Part shown: positions 16,082-23,583 of the stretch, one piece after another | Numbering within the stretch: the first letter of the stretch is position 1 | How the letters are laid out: every line of letters starts with the position of its first letter | Translations under genes and position numbers: made by a program | Source of the DNA: an uncultured Candidatus Sumerlaeota bacterium | Lineage (GTDB): Bacteria; Sumerlaeota; Sumerlaeia; MVZB01; JAJFLK01 | Direction: 5' to 3' | NCBI GenBank assembly: GCA_964598765.1 | Contig: CAZRCZ010000001.1 | Span: 342,327 to 406,326, forward strand | Length of the DNA stretch: 64,000 nt | Notes under the pieces: generated by a model | Told to the model about the DNA's origin: nothing | Database searches by the model: none | The model's input: only the letters and a program-made list of their open reading frames with translations

Positions 16082-16781
16082 AGTTATCGCGATCACGGGG
16101 GCCTCGAGGGGAATCGGCCGGGCGACGGCGTTGGCGCTCGCGGAGGAAGGAACGCGGCTTGCGATCATGGCGCGCTCGACGGAAGCCTTGAGCGAGCTCG
16201 ATGTTGAATTACGAAAGCGCGGAGCGGTGGATGTTTTTTATCATGCGACCGATTTGACCGAAGAGGGAAGTTGCGAAAAATGGATTCAGGCGATTTTGGA
16301 CCGTTGGGGAAGAATTGACGCGCTCATCAACAACGCGGGAATCGGAATCATGAAACCGGTTGAGCAACTCGCCGACGAAGACTGGGCGCGGGTAATCCGG
16401 ACCAACCTGACCGCGCCGTTTCGCCTGATCCGCTCGGTGATCGGTCCGATGCGCAAACAGGGGGGAGGGCACATCATCAACGTTTCCTCGATCGCCGGCG
16501 AAGTGGGATTCGCCGGAGGGGGAGCCTATTGCGCGAGCAAATTCGGATTGCAGGGACTGTCCGATTGTCTCATGCAGGAAGTCCGGCGCGACGGGATCAA
16601 GGTGACGATTCTCGGACCCGGATCGGTCAACACGAGGTTCGAGGGTAAAGGGGGCGAGGGAGCCTCATGGAAAATTCAACCCGAAGAAATTGCCCGGACC
16701 ATTGTTTATCTTCTGAAATCTCCGGATAATGTCATGGCGACGAAATTGCAAATCAGGCCGACATTGAAGGGGAAGAGTTGA
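16062..16781 (+). CDS. SDR-family short-chain dehydrogenase/reductase
   Basis: N-terminal TGASRGIGRA cofactor motif, NNAG, catalytic YCASK. Start at ATG 16062 (GGGGA 8 nt upstream). Confidence 0.85.
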   Translation: MELSADKVIAITGASRGIGRATALALAEEGTRLAIMARSTEALSELDVELRKRGAVDVFYHATDLTEEGSCEKWIQAILDRWGRIDALINNAGIGIMKPVEQLADEDWARVIRTNLTAPFRLIRSVIGPMRKQGGGHIINVSSIAGEVGFAGGGAYCASKFGLQGLSDCLMQEVRRDGIKVTILGPGSVNTRFEGKGGEGASWKIQPEEIARTIVYLLKSPDNVMATKLQIRPTLKGKS

Positions 16782-16840
16782 AAGGATTTTGGATGAGCGG
16801 GAAGAAGGCGGAGTGAAATGAGATTAAAATTAAGATTAGG

Positions 16841-16888
16841 AGCAAGAGCAAGAGCAAGAGCAAGAGTAAGAGTAAGAGTAAGAGCAAG
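16841..16888 (+). repeat. Hexanucleotide tandem repeat (AGCAAG/AGTAAG) x8 in fmt leader
   Basis: agcaag x4, agtaag x3, agcaag x1 read directly; lies 64-111 nt upstream of fmt ATG. Confidence 0.9.
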
Positions 16889-16951
16889 AGAAGCGGAATC
16901 GGAATCTTAAGTTTCCAACCTCAAAACTCGGATCTAAAATTAAAGTTTAAG

Positions 16952-17911
16952 ATGAAAATTTGTTTCATGGGAACGCCCGACTTCGCGGTGCCGGCTTTGG
17001 ATCGGTTGCTGGCAAGCCGCCACGAGGTTTGTCTCGTCGTCACGCAACCGAGCAAACCGAAAGGGAGGGGACGTAAGATCGCCGATCCGCCGATCAAGAC
17101 TCTCGCCGGCGGGCGCGGGATTCCAGTCCTTCAACCCGTGAGTCTCAAGAAGGAACCGTTGGAGGACAAAATCAAGGAATCCGGCATTGACGCCATCGTC
17201 ATCGTGGCCTACGGAAAAATTTTGCCCGAATCGCTCTTGAACGCGCCGCGATTGGGATGTCTCAACATTCACGCTTCGCTCCTTCCGAAATATCGAGGAG
17301 CCGCGCCGATCCAGCGCGCCTTGATGGACGGACAAATGGAGACCGGCGTGACGATCATGAAGGTCGTTCCGCAATTGGACGCCGGACCCATCATCGCGCA
17401 AGAGCGGGTCGAAATTCACGACGACGACGACGCGCTTTCGCTCGCCAACGTGTTGAGCGTCGTCGGAGCCGATTTGCTTCTCCGCGTGTTGGACGACATC
17501 GAACGGGAAGGGGTCATTGAAGGGGAAGCGCAAGACGAAACCGAAGCGACTTATGCGGCGATGATTTCCAAAAGCGACGGGGAGATTCCGTGGAAAGCGA
17601 CTTCGCATGAGATCATGTTTCGTCTTCGAGCGCTCTCGCCATGGCCGGGACTATTCACCACGCTCGACGGCAAACGACTGCGCGTTCACCAAGCCGAGCC
17701 GATGTCCGAAGATGAAGCGGAGAAGATTGGAGCGGATGATGCCCTCGCGCCGGGATCAGTTTCGGGATTCTTGAAGGAATTCGGATTCGCCATCCGGACG
17801 GGAGACGGGCATTTGCTAATTCGCCAACTTCAACTCGAAGGAAAACAGGCAACCGAAGCCGATGCGTTTCTCCATGGGCATCCCTTGAAGATCGGGACGA
17901 AATTGGGTTAG
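16952..17911 (+). CDS. fmt: Methionyl-tRNA formyltransferase
   Basis: MKICFMGTPDFAVPAL..., HASLLPKYRGAAPIQRAL, C-terminal domain; typical length 319 aa. Confidence 0.93.
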   Translation: MKICFMGTPDFAVPALDRLLASRHEVCLVVTQPSKPKGRGRKIADPPIKTLAGGRGIPVLQPVSLKKEPLEDKIKESGIDAIVIVAYGKILPESLLNAPRLGCLNIHASLLPKYRGAAPIQRALMDGQMETGVTIMKVVPQLDAGPIIAQERVEIHDDDDALSLANVLSVVGADLLLRVLDDIEREGVIEGEAQDETEATYAAMISKSDGEIPWKATSHEIMFRLRALSPWPGLFTTLDGKRLRVHQAEPMSEDEAEKIGADDALAPGSVSGFLKEFGFAIRTGDGHLLIRQLQLEGKQATEADAFLHGHPLKIGTKLG

Positions 17912-18019
17912 CGCGATTTCATCAAAAGAGGATGAGGCGTTCCTCCCCTGAATCAGGGCGCGTATTAATCCTTGCGGGTATTCCGCAACCCCTTCGGGGT
18001 TGAATGGGCATCGCGCCAA

Positions 18020-18081
18020 CCCAAGGTAGCTTCGCATGGCTCGGCAACCTTGGGCTTCGATTCGGGACGCCGTTGGCGTCC
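18020..18081 (+). repeat. REP-like double-hairpin element, copy 1
   Basis: cccaaggtagc...ggcaaccttggg hairpin followed by gggacgcc-gtt-ggcgtcc hairpin; ~80% identical to the reverse complement of 21185-21248. Confidence 0.8.
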
Positions 18082-18106
18082 TCGGAGCATCTTCCAGTTT
18101 ATGAAA

Positions 18107-19621
18107 TCAGCCGCGTCCGCCGGCGGAACCGGAATGAACGACGTCCACGAATTCGGTGCGGTCGCCGAAGAAGAGAAGATCGAATTCACCGGTCGGGCCG
18201 TTGCGCTGTTTGCCGATGTAAACGCGGGCGAGTTCGGCTTCCGGCTTGGCGGCGGGTCCGCCGCTTCCTTTTTCATTGGTTTTATTAAAGTCGCGTTGAA
18301 TGAACATCACGACGTCGGCGTCCTGCTCGATGGCGCCCGATTCGCGCAGATCGGAGAGTTTGGGCTTCTGATCCTTGAGCGTTCTTCCGCCGCGCTGTTC
18401 GATTTGACGGGAAAGTTGCGAGAGGGCGAGAACGGGAATCTCCAAATCGCGCGCCAACCCCTTGAGGGCGCGGGAGACGGCGGAAACTTCCTGCTGGCGA
18501 TTTTCGGTTCGGGAATTCGGCCCGCTCATGAGTTGCAAGTAATCCACGATGATCAGCGAAAGCTGGGGCACTTTCTTCTTCAGCCGACGCGAGCGCGATC
18601 TTAATTCCAGAATTGAAAGGTTGGAGGAATCGTCGAGGTAAAGCGGGGAGTTGCCGAGCCGGATTGTTTGGTCGTGCAACAAGCCGATCTCGGAGTGGGA
18701 CAGCCGATTTTCCCGGACCCTTCGCATCGAGACCCGCGCCAGCGTGCAGAGGAGACGCTGATTCAGTTCCTCGCGCGACATTTCAAGGGAGAAAATGCCG
18801 ACGGGTTTTCCGTGACGGACCGCGACGTTGGTCGCGATGTTCATGGCTAGGGCCGATTTGCCCATCGAAGGGCGCGCCGCCAAGATAATCAAATTGGAGG
18901 GATGCAATCCGGTTGTCAGGTTGTCCAAATCCTTGAACCCGGTCGCCAAGCCGGTCACCTCGGTTGCTCCCTGCTTCGCGCGAGCCTCGATGTTCATCAT
19001 CACGCGCGGGGCGATTTCCTCGACGTGAACAAAATCCCGCGACTCCATTTGTTGCGAGAGATCGAAGATTTTCTGCTCCGAGCGATCAAGAATCTGATCC
19101 ACCTCATCCTCAGAGCGGCGAACCTCGTCGGCGATGGACTCGGCGACGCGCAGGAGGGAGCGCAGACGCCATTTCTCCACGACGATGCGGGCGTATTCGG
19201 GAAGATAGATCGTCGTGACCATCTCCTCCTCCAGCCACCCGAGATAAGGCGCGCCGCCGACGGCCTCGAAGCGTCCCAAGCGGTCCAGTTCCGCGCCGAG
19301 CGTGGTCAAATCCACCGCGCGCTCGCGGGCGTAGAGATCGAGGATGGTCTCGAAGATTTCCTGATTGGCGGGATGGGAAAACAGGGGTTCGTCGGTCGAG
19401 GGGATCGGGGTTCCGCCGATGGTTCTCACGCCGCCGGAAGAGCGCTGAGCTTGCTGGGGAATGAGGGTGATGACTTCGTCAATTTTGCGGTTGTCGAACA
19501 ACATGCCGCTCAGGAGCGCGCGTTCGGCCTCCAAGTTTTGGGGGACCGGACGGGTCGAAGGGAGAGCGGGTGATGCCAGAGCCATGCAGAAAAAATTCCC
19601 GGAAGAATCCGATGCAAACAT
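18107..19621 (-). CDS. dnaB: Replicative DNA helicase DnaB
   Basis: N-terminal domain (LEAERALLSGMLFDNRKIDEV), GLATGFKDLDNLTTGLHPSNLIILAARPSMGKSALAMN Walker A region, RecA-like C-terminal domain. ATG at 19621; ATG at 19585 possible. Confidence 0.93.
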   Translation of the reverse strand: MFASDSSGNFFCMALASPALPSTRPVPQNLEAERALLSGMLFDNRKIDEVITLIPQQAQRSSGGVRTIGGTPIPSTDEPLFSHPANQEIFETILDLYARERAVDLTTLGAELDRLGRFEAVGGAPYLGWLEEEMVTTIYLPEYARIVVEKWRLRSLLRVAESIADEVRRSEDEVDQILDRSEQKIFDLSQQMESRDFVHVEEIAPRVMMNIEARAKQGATEVTGLATGFKDLDNLTTGLHPSNLIILAARPSMGKSALAMNIATNVAVRHGKPVGIFSLEMSREELNQRLLCTLARVSMRRVRENRLSHSEIGLLHDQTIRLGNSPLYLDDSSNLSILELRSRSRRLKKKVPQLSLIIVDYLQLMSGPNSRTENRQQEVSAVSRALKGLARDLEIPVLALSQLSRQIEQRGGRTLKDQKPKLSDLRESGAIEQDADVVMFIQRDFNKTNEKGSGGPAAKPEAELARVYIGKQRNGPTGEFDLLFFGDRTEFVDVVHSGSAGGRG

Positions 19622-19695
19622 TCTTGAGCACGCATCGGGCGAATTTCAATTGCATAATGATTGGGAATGCTTCAACAAAAGCGCGCTACAACAAA

Positions 19696-20994
19696 TCACG
19701 CCAATCCCGACCGTTCGGCGGAACTGATAATCCCCAACTCCAACGCTTTTTCCGCCCGCAGGATGCCCCATGACGTCGCGCGGCGGAGTCGGGCGCGGAG
19801 GTGGCGGTCGGTGGCGCGGTCGGCCATGTAGGCGGCCTTCCCTTCGCCGAGCATTGTCGCGCCGGAGCCGGAGGCGACGCTCGCGCTGTAGGCTTCGATC
19901 TCCTTGAGGTCGCTCTCGACTTGTTTGGCGGGAATCGCGTTGCGATAGGCGGCCATGACCATCAGCAACTGCGCCGGATGGCCGACCCATTTGCCGCTCA
20001 TGCCGAGCGCGATGCCGTGCATGGCGTCGTCGTAAACTTCCTTGAGCGCGCCGAGGATTTTATCTTTGTTGGCCTGCGTTTGCTCGGGCGTGAGGTTTTT
20101 GTCGCGGTAGATCGGCGTCGGGTAGTTGAGCGTCATGCAATCAATCGCCGGGACGTTGAGCGCGCCGGCAACGTTGACAATTTCATATCGCGCCCAGTCG
20201 CAGACCGGATGGTCGTTCTTGATTTTGGGGAGATTGGCGTCGGCGCTGTAATCGGCGATGCCCCAGATGATCCCGGCGAGCCGATGCGCCGAGGTCCGCG
20301 CAAGTTCGTCAATCCGATTAAGCGCGTAACCGGACTCGACGAGGAACTCCAACTTGATCTGATTTTCGGCAAGGCCGAGTTGCTTTTCGACTTTGCCGAG
20401 GATGTCGCAAACCCACGCGATCTCTTCGGGATGCTCGGCCTTGGGCCAGACGATTCCGGCGATGGGATAATTTTCGGGGGCGCGTCCCTTGGCGACTTCG
20501 GTCAGGACGATCAGAATGTCCTCGACGCAGGAATCAAGACGCAATCCCGCCGGACGGAAAAAGGGAAGTGTCGTGCCCCAGTTTTCCTGAGTGAAAACGC
20601 GGATTGCCCCTTGGCGCGCCTTGTGAATCGTGTCCTCCGTCAGCGCGACGGCGTCCTCGGCGTCCACCATGACGAAAGGAGAATTTTTGTTTTCGCCGTG
20701 GAGAATTTCAAGAACCGTGGCCAGCGGCGCGCCGGTCGCGTCGGCGATTTCGTGGGGCGTGATGTGAAACCGCTCCAAAATTTTTGCGACCGCGCTCAGA
20801 CCCTGAATCGCCTTTTCGGGCGTCCCGCTGGCCGGAGTCGTGAAATGCGCCTGCTGGTTCCAGTATCGCAGGGGCATGTCCGCGCTCAGGCGCGAGCGTT
20901 GGCGCAGAAGATCCTGCCGTCGCGCCGAGGCGGTTTCGGCGATGGCTTGATATGTCGGGGCGACTTCCAATTTGGACAAGGCGGCCTGTTCCAT
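19696..20994 (-). CDS. HpcH/HpaI aldolase / citrate-lyase beta-subunit (CitE)-like protein
   Basis: 432-aa ORF with FVMVDAEDA (DxED metal-binding motif of CitE/malyl-CoA lyase family); larger than canonical CitE. Confidence 0.6.
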   Translation of the reverse strand: MEQAALSKLEVAPTYQAIAETASARRQDLLRQRSRLSADMPLRYWNQQAHFTTPASGTPEKAIQGLSAVAKILERFHITPHEIADATGAPLATVLEILHGENKNSPFVMVDAEDAVALTEDTIHKARQGAIRVFTQENWGTTLPFFRPAGLRLDSCVEDILIVLTEVAKGRAPENYPIAGIVWPKAEHPEEIAWVCDILGKVEKQLGLAENQIKLEFLVESGYALNRIDELARTSAHRLAGIIWGIADYSADANLPKIKNDHPVCDWARYEIVNVAGALNVPAIDCMTLNYPTPIYRDKNLTPEQTQANKDKILGALKEVYDDAMHGIALGMSGKWVGHPAQLLMVMAAYRNAIPAKQVESDLKEIEAYSASVASGSGATMLGEGKAAYMADRATDRHLRARLRRATSWGILRAEKALELGIISSAERSGLA

Positions 20995-21184
20995 GCGAGC
21001 GGTTCTCCCTGCGATGCGGTTTGGCGTTCAAAATGCGAGCGGTTGAAATTATCACGCCGGAGGGGGAAGCGTCAATTGCGGGTCACAGCCGCGAGCGTCA
21101 AATCGGGATACGCTTGAATTGCCCGCCTTCATAACTCGTCGGGTTCCGAAGACGCTTGTGTCTCGAGATGCGGAAAATCTGCGG

Positions 21185-21248
21185 GGAACGCCAAGAGGCG
21201 TTCCGGAACAAAGCCCAAGGTCGCCGAGCGTAGCGAGGCTACCTTGGG
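21185..21248 (-). repeat. REP-like double-hairpin element, copy 2 (abuts RAYT gene)
   Basis: ggaacgcc-aaga-ggcgttcc hairpin plus cccaaggtcgcc...ggctaccttggg hairpin; reverse complement aligns with 18020-18081. Confidence 0.8.
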
Positions 21249-21301
21249 TCCCCAAAAGCCACGATTGCAACCTCAACGAGGTTGCGGCATGATTTTCTCC
21301 G

Positions 21302-21712
21302 ATGCCGCAGTCACTTTCCGCCGTTTATCTTCATTTGGTTTTCTCCACGAAAGACCGGCGCCCTCTTCTTCGCGACCACACCCTGCGCGAAAGGTTACAC
21401 GCCTACTTGGCCGGCATTTCCAATCAATTGGATTGTCCTGTCCTCATTGTGGGAGGCGTCGAGGATCACGTTCACTTGTTGGCGCGGTTCGGACGGACGG
21501 TGACTCAGGCTGAATGGGTGAAAGAATTGAAGCGGGTGTCGAGCATCTGGCTTAAGAAACGCGGACGCCAATACGCCGATTTTGCATGGCAATCGGGATA
21601 CGCCGTATTTTCGGTGAGCCAATCCAAATTGAATCACGCGAAAATATATATCGCGCAACAGGAGGACCACCATCGGCGATTGAGATTTCAGGACGAGAGA
21701 CGATGTCAGTGA
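21302..21712 (+). CDS. IS200-like / REP-associated tyrosine transposase (RAYT) family protein, possibly C-terminally truncated
   Basis: AVYLHLVFSTKDRRPLL, HuH motif VEDHVHLL, YAVFSVS, IAQQEDHHRRLRFQDE. Ends soon after FQDE, shorter than I would expect for this family (from memory). Confidence 0.75.
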   Translation: MPQSLSAVYLHLVFSTKDRRPLLRDHTLRERLHAYLAGISNQLDCPVLIVGGVEDHVHLLARFGRTVTQAEWVKELKRVSSIWLKKRGRQYADFAWQSGYAVFSVSQSKLNHAKIYIAQQEDHHRRLRFQDERRCQ

Positions 21713-21862
21713 TGAACGGCACAAGTTCACTTGGCAGCCACATGGTTCGCAATTCACGATCATTGAATATGTGCCGCAGGACAGACTTGCGATCCGTCTC
21801 AAGAAACCTCCCCCAAAGATCGATCGTTCCAAACTACTGAATGAATTGCAGTTTGACAGTTC

Positions 21863-22339
21863 TTGGGTGGAGATACTCAAATCCTAAAAGTGGACACGGT
21901 CAGCGCGAAAAAACGCTCATGGATAATGGCTCAGATAAAATCGGCCGGGAATGAATCAACCGAGGGGCGTCTGGCAAAGCAGTTCCGTAACCACGCAATC
22001 AAGGGTTGGAGGAGAAAATCCAAGCTACTTGGCAAACCGGATTTTGTATTTCGTCGCGCTCGCGTTGCCGTTTTCGTGGATGGATGCTTCTGGCATGGAT
22101 GTCCCACCCATTGCAGATTGCCCACTACGCGACGGGCTTATTGGACGAACAAAATTGCCAAAAACATGCGGCGAGACAGAAATATCCGTGCGGCTCTCAG
22201 GCGTGGCGGGTGGACGGTATGGCGCTTTTGGGAGCATGAAATTCGCTCACCCTCAGTAGAAGAAAAACTTCGAGGATTAAGGCGAACAATTCGAGTCAGG
22301 TCGAAAAAGATGAATCCTCGAGTCGGTCGTCAAGAATGA
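21863..22339 (+). CDS. vsr: Very-short-patch-repair endonuclease (Vsr)
   Basis: Motifs KRSWIMAQIKS, GKPDFVF, AVFVDGCFWHGC, WTVWRFWEHE match Vsr. ORF-track start is TTG; GTG 21890 or ATG 21922 possible. Confidence 0.8.
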   Translation: MGGDTQILKVDTVSAKKRSWIMAQIKSAGNESTEGRLAKQFRNHAIKGWRRKSKLLGKPDFVFRRARVAVFVDGCFWHGCPTHCRLPTTRRAYWTNKIAKNMRRDRNIRAALRRGGWTVWRFWEHEIRSPSVEEKLRGLRRTIRVRSKKMNPRVGRQE

Positions 22340-22475
22340 GACTGATGGCCACGCGGACGCTGTCGCGGCATTCCGCAATGGATTCGCCTTGGCCATTCGC
22401 GCCGGGAACTTCCGGGCAGTAGCCGATGTAAAAGTTCTTTCCCTTTTCAATGATGACGGTAAATTCGCGATGCAT
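22296..22475 (-). CDS. hicB: HicB-like antitoxin domain protein (UPF0150), no adjacent HicA
   Basis: MHREFTVIIEKGKNFYIGYCPEVPGANGQGESIAECRDSVRVAISLIL fits HicB N-terminal fold. Start at ATG 22475 with GGGAG-like RBS upstream; longer ORF-track version overlaps apbE. Confidence 0.55.
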   Translation of the reverse strand: MHREFTVIIEKGKNFYIGYCPEVPGANGQGESIAECRDSVRVAISLILDDRLEDSSFST

Positions 22476-22542
22476 TGAGAGACTCCCTTCGTCTTCGCTA
22501 ATGATATAAGGAAGCGGCAGTATCGCGCCACTCAAACGACGC

Positions 22543-23583
22543 TCACACTCTTCGATAGGATGGAAACTCTCCCACCTGAACAAACTTCAATCCGCCGTTG
22601 GCGTCGAGATCGAGGTTGAGGCCGGAGACGCCCGCCGGAAGAAGATCGGGCGATGCGTCGCGTCCGGCGACAAACAGCGCGGTCGAGGCCGCGTCGGCTT
22701 CCATGCAGGTCGCGGCGAAGGCCGACGAACTGAGATACGTGTTAGATCGTTCGCCTGATTGCGGGTTGAACTTGTCCATCCGTTCCGGCCTGATTTTGAA
22801 GTCGGAGAAATCATAGTTGCCCGACGTGGCGATGGCCTGATTGGCCAGCTCAAAAATCGCGCAGACTCCCGCGCGGGTCGGGTCCTGCAAACCGACTTTC
22901 CAACCGGGCGCGTCGGTCGGACAGCCATGCACGTAGAGGTCGCCGCCGGCCTCGACGATGGCGTTGGCGATTCCCCATTTGTCGCGCAGGACGGCGATGG
23001 CGCGATCCACGGCGTAGCCTTTGGCGATGCCGCCAAGATCAAAACCCATTCCCTTGCGTTGCAATCCCAACTGACGCCCCTCGATCCGAATTTGGCGGTA
23101 ATCCACGAGTTCGCGCGCCTCGGCGATCGTGTCCGGAATGTCGTCGGCCTCGGGATGCAATCCGCCAGCCTTGAGCAAGGGAAGCGCGGTGATGTCGAAC
23201 AGCGCGCCGGATTGTTTCGCCCAGCGCAATCCCGATCGAACGACCTCGATGATGCGGGGATCCACTTCCAACATTTCGCTCCCCGCGACGCGATTGACGC
23301 GCGAGAGGGGTGTGAACCGCCGATGAATGCTCATCAAATCCTCGACGAGTTGGATTTCCGCGATGGCGTCGAGAACGGCCTCGCGCGCCTTGTTCTCCTT
23401 CTCGCCGATGACGACGAGGTGAACGACGGTTCCCATCGCCTGCCATGCCTTGCGGCAATCCTTGTCGGCGACCGACGCCGCCCAGCTTCCTTTCGGGATT
23501 CCCAGCGAGAAAACGGACGATCCGATGCCGACCATGCCAAGTTGCTTCAAAAAATCGCGGCGATCAGGTGATTTGAATGTCAT
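22543..23583 (-). CDS. apbE: FAD:protein FMN transferase (ApbE family), Tat-exported
   Basis: Tat motif RRDFLK at N-terminus; ApbE core (GFDLGGIAKGYAVDRA, TSGNYD). Confidence 0.85.
   Translation of the reverse strand: MTFKSPDRRDFLKQLGMVGIGSSVFSLGIPKGSWAASVADKDCRKAWQAMGTVVHLVVIGEKENKAREAVLDAIAEIQLVEDLMSIHRRFTPLSRVNRVAGSEMLEVDPRIIEVVRSGLRWAKQSGALFDITALPLLKAGGLHPEADDIPDTIAEARELVDYRQIRIEGRQLGLQRKGMGFDLGGIAKGYAVDRAIAVLRDKWGIANAIVEAGGDLYVHGCPTDAPGWKVGLQDPTRAGVCAIFELANQAIATSGNYDFSDFKIRPERMDKFNPQSGERSNTYLSSSAFAATCMEADAASTALFVAGRDASPDLLPAGVSGLNLDLDANGGLKFVQVGEFPSYRRV

Follow-up and report, generated by a model that had tools for sequence, protein, structure and literature searches.

Hairpin units and a Y1 transposase gene in the window

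The DNA analysed here is a 64-kb stretch (hereafter the window), in which a gene for an IS200-like Y1 (HUH) single-strand DNA transposase of 136 aa lies on the plus strand at 21302..21712, followed by a gene for a Vsr-like mismatch endonuclease (PF03852, 21863-22339) as its next neighbour. The Y1 protein matches Pfam PF01797 (Y1_Tnp) with E = 1.7e-24. The original prediction had taken it for a REP-associated tyrosine transposase (RAYT); however, it fails the NCBIfam RAYT model NF047646 (22.4 bits, cut-off 80) and passes the IS200 model NF033573 (63.1 bits, cut-off 55), so that this assignment was not upheld. The nearest solved structures are the TnpA proteins of IS608 and ISDra2, and TnpA_REP was absent among its PDB matches. 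The HUH, WQ and Y---Q--HH motifs, which are invariant in our protein alignment A3, are all retained by the window protein (DHVH, WQ and YIAQQEDHH), its Y motif being YIAQQEDHH and not YIxxNP.

More than 8000 homologues were found at about 70-77% identity, mostly of 151 aa and ending in ...FQDELRALLRKHEIEWDEKYVWD. The window protein is without the conserved C-terminal ~15 residues (...LRALLRKHEIEWDEKYVWD): it diverges after RFQDE and then stops, and the likeness of the gene to its relatives stops near 21693. An independent Logan assembly contig of 1.1 kb is 100% identical over 21224-22361, and therefore the truncation is not peculiar to one assembly. The break may be an insertion or deletion junction, and the C-terminally truncated gene may be inactive. 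No tnpB adjoins the gene, only one Y1 copy is present in the window, and a covariance-model search of the window found no repeat unit downstream of the gene.

Two copies of a 113-nt module with three hairpins (Ha, Hb and Hc) lie in this region. We named the order Ha-Hb-Hc 'R' and its reverse complement 'F'. Unit A, at 21179..21295, is matched by the covariance model (R1) on the minus strand and is thus an F unit, which in plus-strand reading comprises Hc' (21185-21204), Hb' (21214-21248) and Ha' (21268-21284). Unit B, a solo module at 17975..18088, is R on the plus strand and comprises Ha (17986-18002), Hb (18020-18054; CCCAAG-GTAG-...-CAACCTTGGG) and Hc (18065-18081). Both are matched by R1 with high scores, unit A over its full length (71.4 bits, E = 3.9e-15) and unit B with 73.4 bits (E = 1.3e-15), and the DNA fold predicted for the region (z-score -4.5) contains the hairpins of unit A. 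Between the end of unit A and the ATG of the Y1 gene there are 6 nt, which is the usual 5' arrangement of the relatives. Unit B is located in a 195-nt gap between fmt (ending at 17911) and the convergent dnaB (minus strand, ending at 18107), both neighbours being identified by open reading frames and Pfam; it is an old solo module at a typical REP-like site between convergent genes.

The original prediction had described a ~62-64-bp element with a second, inverted copy downstream of dnaB, and had placed four hairpins within 21185-21307. The second copy was confirmed: a global alignment of 21185-21248 (64 bp) with the reverse complement of 18020-18081 (62 bp) gave 52/64 identities (81%), and a repeat finder returned an inverted match of 53 nt without gaps (83%) between 18019-18071 and 21197-21249. 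The repeat is thus real, but its extent had been drawn too short, the full unit being ~113 nt and including a third hairpin. All four hairpins were verified at their coordinates, namely ggaacgcc-aaga-ggcgttcc (21185-21204), the longer and imperfect cccaaggt...accttggg (21214-21248), caacctc-aac-gaggttg (21268-21284) and cggcat...atgccg (21285-21307), which includes the ATG at 21302. The two that had been seen as additions after the copy both exist, but the third is part of the unit and the fourth, with the ATG, is specific to this locus and not conserved. In unit B the third hairpin is caacccc-ttc-ggggttg (17986-18002), with a compensatory change from T:A to C:G relative to unit A, and a short GCGG/CCGC stem is found where the unit A region has its fourth hairpin.

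That the resemblance of A and B arose by chance, or belongs to a larger segmental duplication as the original prediction had allowed, has in its favour that only two copies lie within the window. Both notions are refuted. The core pattern occurs at 2 sites in the 64-kb window against 0 expected (100 shuffles), both units score >70 bits against the family model, and hundreds of related units exist elsewhere. The identity of A and B is ~70-71% across the whole 113-nt unit and falls to ~50% in the flanks, which rules out a segmental duplication. A and B are as close to units from other phyla as they are to one another, and are old, independent members of the family; nothing in the window indicates recent activity.

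A filter-free search of the 64-kb window with R1 detected no further units, the next best matches scoring at most 16 bits. Both units lie within 3.3 kb of the Y1 gene, as two singles 3.1 kb apart in R...F order; a REPIN-type inverted doublet with short spacing is not present in the window, nor is a BIME-like array, which the original prediction had had in mind. We also considered whether units A and B could be the ends of one mobile 3.3-kb segment carrying dnaB. This was rejected, as their R...F orientation is opposite to that of the cassette described below, the segment contains the replicative helicase gene dnaB, and A and B are no more alike than random members of the family.

The locus-specific hairpin at 21284..21308 (plus strand; gcggcat-(11 nt)-atgccgc) holds the start codon in its 3' arm and is predicted in both DNA and RNA folds; the GCGGC that commonly extends Ha' forms its 5' arm and here pairs with the gene start. 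When the window and 77 relatives were compared, full pairing of the ATG was predicted in 23 of these 78 loci, the background paired fraction being 0.47, and sequestering of the start codon was therefore rejected as a family feature. A promoter scan around both units found no promoter-like site on the plus strand upstream of the Y1 gene. Between the fmt stop codon and unit B (17912-17975), we observed 'gaggcgttcc', which is the 3' half of Hc' of unit A, a short palindrome 'ccctga-a-tcaggg', and 'ccttgcgg-gtatt-ccgcaa', which is similar to the centre of the F-R doublets described below. Taken together, they resemble the reduced remains of a partner F unit, but R1 has no match in this stretch.

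Architecture and covariation of the module

Across the family, the consensus of Ha is CAACCnn-GTT-nnGGTTG and that of Hc is AATCCC-GTT-GGGATT or AACGCC-GTT-GGCGTT, while Hb consists of CCCARGGTAG, then a variable GC-rich hairpin, and then CAACCYTGGGCT. In the units from loci selected by protein, whose alignment was fitted to the covariance model, 98.4% of cells were paired and compensatory changes were found in 12 of 19 pairs (151 cells); none of 500 shuffles reached as high, and slid controls had 27-57% paired. The outer Hb stem, for example, alternates between AAGG/CCTT and AGGG/CCCT. Similar covariation was observed in the set selected by pattern, for the pairs that the search pattern does not fix (Ha, Hc and the inner Hb stem). 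Such covariation points to structural selection on the hairpins of the module.

The GTAG preceding the variable GC-rich inner hairpin of Hb is nearly invariant, although a GTGG variant exists, and its two G positions showed no variation across 68 units. It lies within the outer stem of Hb (G:C, T:A, A unpaired, G:C) with a conserved A.A mismatch. It is therefore not a free 5' tag here, unlike in classical REPs, in which the tag is an unpaired 5' GT[AG]G (PMC3733652, PMC6006769).

A run of 13 nt from the 5' half of Hc (CCACAATCCCTTTGGGATTG) recurs at the beginning of the Y1 gene (ATGCCACAATCCCTTTCC) in Verrucomicrobial loci, L002 (9955-10020) among them. This identity could be due to chance, or could be a trace of the origin of the module.

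Linkage to the transposase gene and dispersal away from it

To sample loci by protein, metagenomic sequences were scanned with alignment A3, in which the repeat was not used, and the arrangement of the resulting 80 loci was parsed with tblastn and nhmmer. In total, R1 identified 189 units in these loci. An inverted pair, with F upstream and R downstream of the gene, was found in 44 of the 80, the F unit as a rule ending 7-30 nt upstream of the ATG and the R unit as a rule beginning anywhere from 4 nt before to 28 nt after the end of the stop codon; most of the remainder had too little flank or one unit. Three loci (L180, L199 and L202) had no unit by nhmmer, and the covariance model found one in each. 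The normal cassette is thus an F-unit, the gene and an R-unit, together ~710 bp, with the units inverted and separated from the start and stop codons by a few to ~30 nt; some of the Verrucomicrobial loci carry an additional R unit between F and the gene. At the homologue loci L002 to L004, for instance, a unit adjoins the gene in both orientations with the same flanking arrangement. Flanking of the gene on both sides in other copies, for which the original prediction had suggested a test, was accordingly found.

The F and R units are 76% alike within a cassette and 68% between cassettes, and in 15 of 39 cases the best match of a unit is its own partner; common descent, and not the specificity of the enzyme, could account for this likeness. 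Identities among the homologues range continuously over 50-90%, without sets of near-identical copies, and no second copy of the Y1 gene was seen in any fetched flank or in the window. The close association of units and gene supports the modules as the probable DNA partner of this Y1 gene family. Measured against the normal cassette, the window locus, which has the upstream unit A only, is a decayed cassette, in which the left module and 135 codons are intact and the C-terminal tail and right module are gone.

This bracketing also bears on whether the modules function chiefly in RNA, as transcription terminators, mRNA stabilisers or small RNAs, with the Y1 linkage being secondary. Covariation as a sign of selection for hairpins would fit such a role. 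So would the GC-rich Ha, often followed by T-rich sequence (Ha' of the window was flagged as terminator-like), the position of unit B between convergent genes, and the R units that begin at the Y1 stop codon. However, both orientations of the unit are found, as are inverted doublets, and no Rfam match was obtained at E ≤ 1 over 16500-23000, a region that covers both window units, which places neither in a curated RNA family. A role in RNA alone would leave unexplained why one enzyme gene is bracketed by inverted units near-universally and at constrained distances, and we regard it as very improbable.

A second sample was selected by the repeat, by scanning one genome per species with the pattern CCCAAGGTAGN{9,19}ACCTTGGGCT, for which ~12 chance matches were calculated; this yielded at least 119 genome stretches. 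Among the matches listed, the Y1 gene was present in 12 of 119 stretches (each fetched up to 8 kb) and absent in 107, and therefore the units are dispersed, as REPs are. Although the gene is strongly enriched in the vicinity of units, ~90% of the units among the same matches lie elsewhere, and all stretches carry Ha and Hc, which are outside the search pattern. The hosts among the matches listed were mostly Verrucomicrobiota metagenome-assembled genomes (MAGs), the others being Planctomycetota (Pirellulales, Phycisphaerae, Gemmatales and Schlesneria), Acidobacteriota, Sumerlaeota and a Fimbriimonadaceae MAG. Dispersal is thus seen in other genomes; the window itself has only two units in 64 kb, both near the gene, and dispersal in its own genome is a conjecture.

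In the first 61 of these repeat-selected loci, R1 identified 128 units, and the dominant form was a gene-less inverted F-R doublet of ~230 bp, made of a minus-strand unit, 4-20 nt and a plus-strand unit. The inverted pairing that the original prediction had suggested looking for was therefore observed in other genomes. Units were often located at contig ends or were cut by them. In the MAG CAMASH01, three contigs (L007, L093 and L108) carry an identical doublet with differing right flanks, and two of them break inside the doublet; identical doublets with differing flanks are the behaviour of a multi-copy, recently copied repeat.

Several further observations were made on these stretches. The CAMASH01 doublets continue into a tail of ~30 nt ending in ...CCTGCACCC, beyond which the flanks diverge, and the left side of L007 has the inverted tail GGGTGCGGGACAAA; given these common tails, the mobile unit in that genome seems longer than the doublet. 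In L039, from a Sumerlaeota MAG, the Ha hairpin of the R unit in a doublet is identical in sequence to that of unit A. The window probably comes from Candidatus Sumerlaeota as well, the best named relatives of its DnaB being 64% identical. The stretches L009, L021, L028, L029, L045 and L111 are titled Bifidobacteriaceae, Bifidobacterium, Klebsiella, Chitinophaga pinensis or Treponema denticola. These titles are implausible because the element is otherwise found mainly in Verrucomicrobiota, Planctomycetota and Acidobacteriota, and the bins are probably mislabelled. A phage-borne origin was rejected: the three viral-contig matches to the pattern, about the number that we estimate for chance, were not confirmed by the unit HMM, and there is no Y1 gene beside any of them.

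Relation to known systems and a proposed mechanism

The system was compared with REP/RAYT and REPIN systems, of which E. coli TnpA_REP with REP/BIME and the Pseudomonas fluorescens RAYT with REPINs are examples. As in those, inverted palindromic repeats bracket a Y1/HUH gene, the repeat is dispersed without the gene and mostly as inverted doublets, a GTAG adjoins a GC-rich hairpin, and the gene is not multi-copy in the fetched flanks. There are also differences. The present protein is on the IS200 side, with Y---Q--HH instead of Y..NP, and falls short of NF047646; the unit is 113 nt with three hairpins, whereas a REP is 20-40 nt; and the GTAG is base-paired in a stem rather than unpaired. REPs are usually lineage-specific, whereas the sequence of the present module is conserved across phyla. 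Hence, the candidate REP/RAYT pair of the original prediction stands insofar as the repeat is the likely partner of the gene family (inverted pairs in 44/80 loci, 107/119 listed stretches without the gene), but the pair is not a strict RAYT system.

Other families that combine tyrosine transposases with repeats were also considered. TIRtrons with their TIRYTs (Di Nocera et al., 2013; PMC3733652) are similar in having tyrosine-transposase genes with long inverted repeats that are partly self-folding, in moderately abundant, dimeric families; however, the TIR motif GGGGWSAS does not match the present module. Identity of the module with the GTAG families of Opitutus terrae or Rhodopirellula baltica was rejected, as the repeat-encoded peptides and the supplementary text do not match, and the strings CCAAGG and AAGGTAG are absent from the supplementary text of PMC3733652.

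As for the protein, Quentin et al. (2018) defined a TnpA_Y1 subclass 1.2 by DH[IV]H, WQ and Y---Q--HH, with a median of 148 aa, a conserved C-terminal domain and low copy number, recorded it as 'REP: no', and found it in Cyanobacteria and Bacteroidetes (PMC6006769). The present family agrees with it in motifs, in a length of ~150 aa, in the conserved C-terminal tail (the window copy being without the C-terminal domain) and in behaving unlike an insertion sequence. It differs in that its genes come from Verrucomicrobiota, Planctomycetota, Acidobacteriota and Sumerlaeota, and in that nearly all 80 loci carry structured flanking units, against none published. The system is functionally REP/RAYT-like or TIRtron-like (PMC3733652). 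Its protein is a member of subclass 1.2, a group of the IS200 side without any reported partner DNA (PMC6006769).

The comparison with IS200/IS605 elements and their gene-less derivatives (PATEs/MITEs) raises the question of whether the cassette is an ordinary autonomous IS200-type insertion sequence. In that case the whole ~710-bp F-gene-R unit would be mobile, the copy in the window would be dead and 3'-deleted, with unit B as a solo end or MITE remnant, and there would be no domesticated REP-like system. The closest protein relatives are indeed the TnpA of IS608 and ISDra2, hairpins lie beside the ends, the cassette is compact (~700 bp) and, like IS200, carries a single gene, and its protein scores above the cut-off of the IS200 NCBIfam model. 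Moreover, the short gene-less doublets resemble non-autonomous derivatives made from the cassette by internal deletion, and truncated copies such as that of the window are typical of decaying insertion sequences.

IS200/IS605 elements carry their end hairpins on the same strand and have no inverted termini. The ends of the present cassette are inverted, by contrast, its flanking units being mutual reverse complements with F upstream and R downstream, and the present locus is without tnpB. Neither the window nor the fetched flanks hold a second gene copy, let alone multi-copy identical genes, and the continuum of homologues at 50-90% identity contains no near-identical sets. In addition, the published copy number of subclass 1.2 is low (mean 1.7), with 36% identity between copies (PMC6006769). 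On balance, we consider an autonomous insertion sequence unlikely.

We therefore prefer the reading, at a probability of roughly 0.7, that the modules and the IS200-like Y1/HUH transposase of TnpA_Y1 subclass 1.2 together form a REP/RAYT-like system, of which the window locus is a decayed cassette. The modules would be the cognate DNA of the transposase, in a family that spans several phyla and whose gene-less F-R doublets (~230 bp) and single units are scattered over other parts of the same genomes. Analogy with IS608 TnpA and REP/RAYT suggests that the enzyme would bind the hairpins in their folded form on single-stranded DNA, such as that exposed at the replication fork, and, as IS608 TnpA and E. 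coli TnpA_REP do, would then cut and rejoin beside them, so that the gene-less modules may be mobilised or maintained in trans. It is from these analogies that we infer binding, cleavage and mobility, as well as any activity that the window copy may have had.

A broader proposal is put forward more tentatively, at somewhat less than even odds: the 113-nt module may be the missing DNA partner of subclass 1.2, in an undescribed REPIN/RAYT-like system on the IS200 side that extends over at least Verrucomicrobiota, Planctomycetota, Acidobacteriota and Sumerlaeota, with a recognition module conserved across phyla far beyond classical REPs. Full-text literature searches found no later description of the module/transposase system. 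If the proposal is true, systems of a REP-like enzyme and dispersed hairpins would have evolved from Y1 transposases on two or more occasions, in the RAYT clade and separately in the IS200-like subclass 1.2, and the orphan subclass 1.2 would gain a concrete DNA substrate. The length, strong structure and cross-phylum conservation of the module could also make it a convenient substrate for studying how HUH enzymes read several hairpins. The window alone contributes modestly, with a decayed cassette and one solo unit.

The units also affect genome annotation, in that they create many spurious small ORFs (PKVA, TLGW, NPFG) and break MAG assemblies. In over-long ORF calls of the homologues, the peptides APKVAP, NLGLE, TLGWR and NPFGIE recur upstream of the true start, and these are translated hairpins (CCCAAGGT..., ...ACCTTGGG and AACCCCTTCGGGGTT). 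Gene callers run ORFs through the units, as in P0002-P0005, P0013, P0027 and the window ORF 17972-18604, which yields false N-terminal extensions and small 'hypothetical proteins' with PKVA, NLGLE, TLGW and NPFG.
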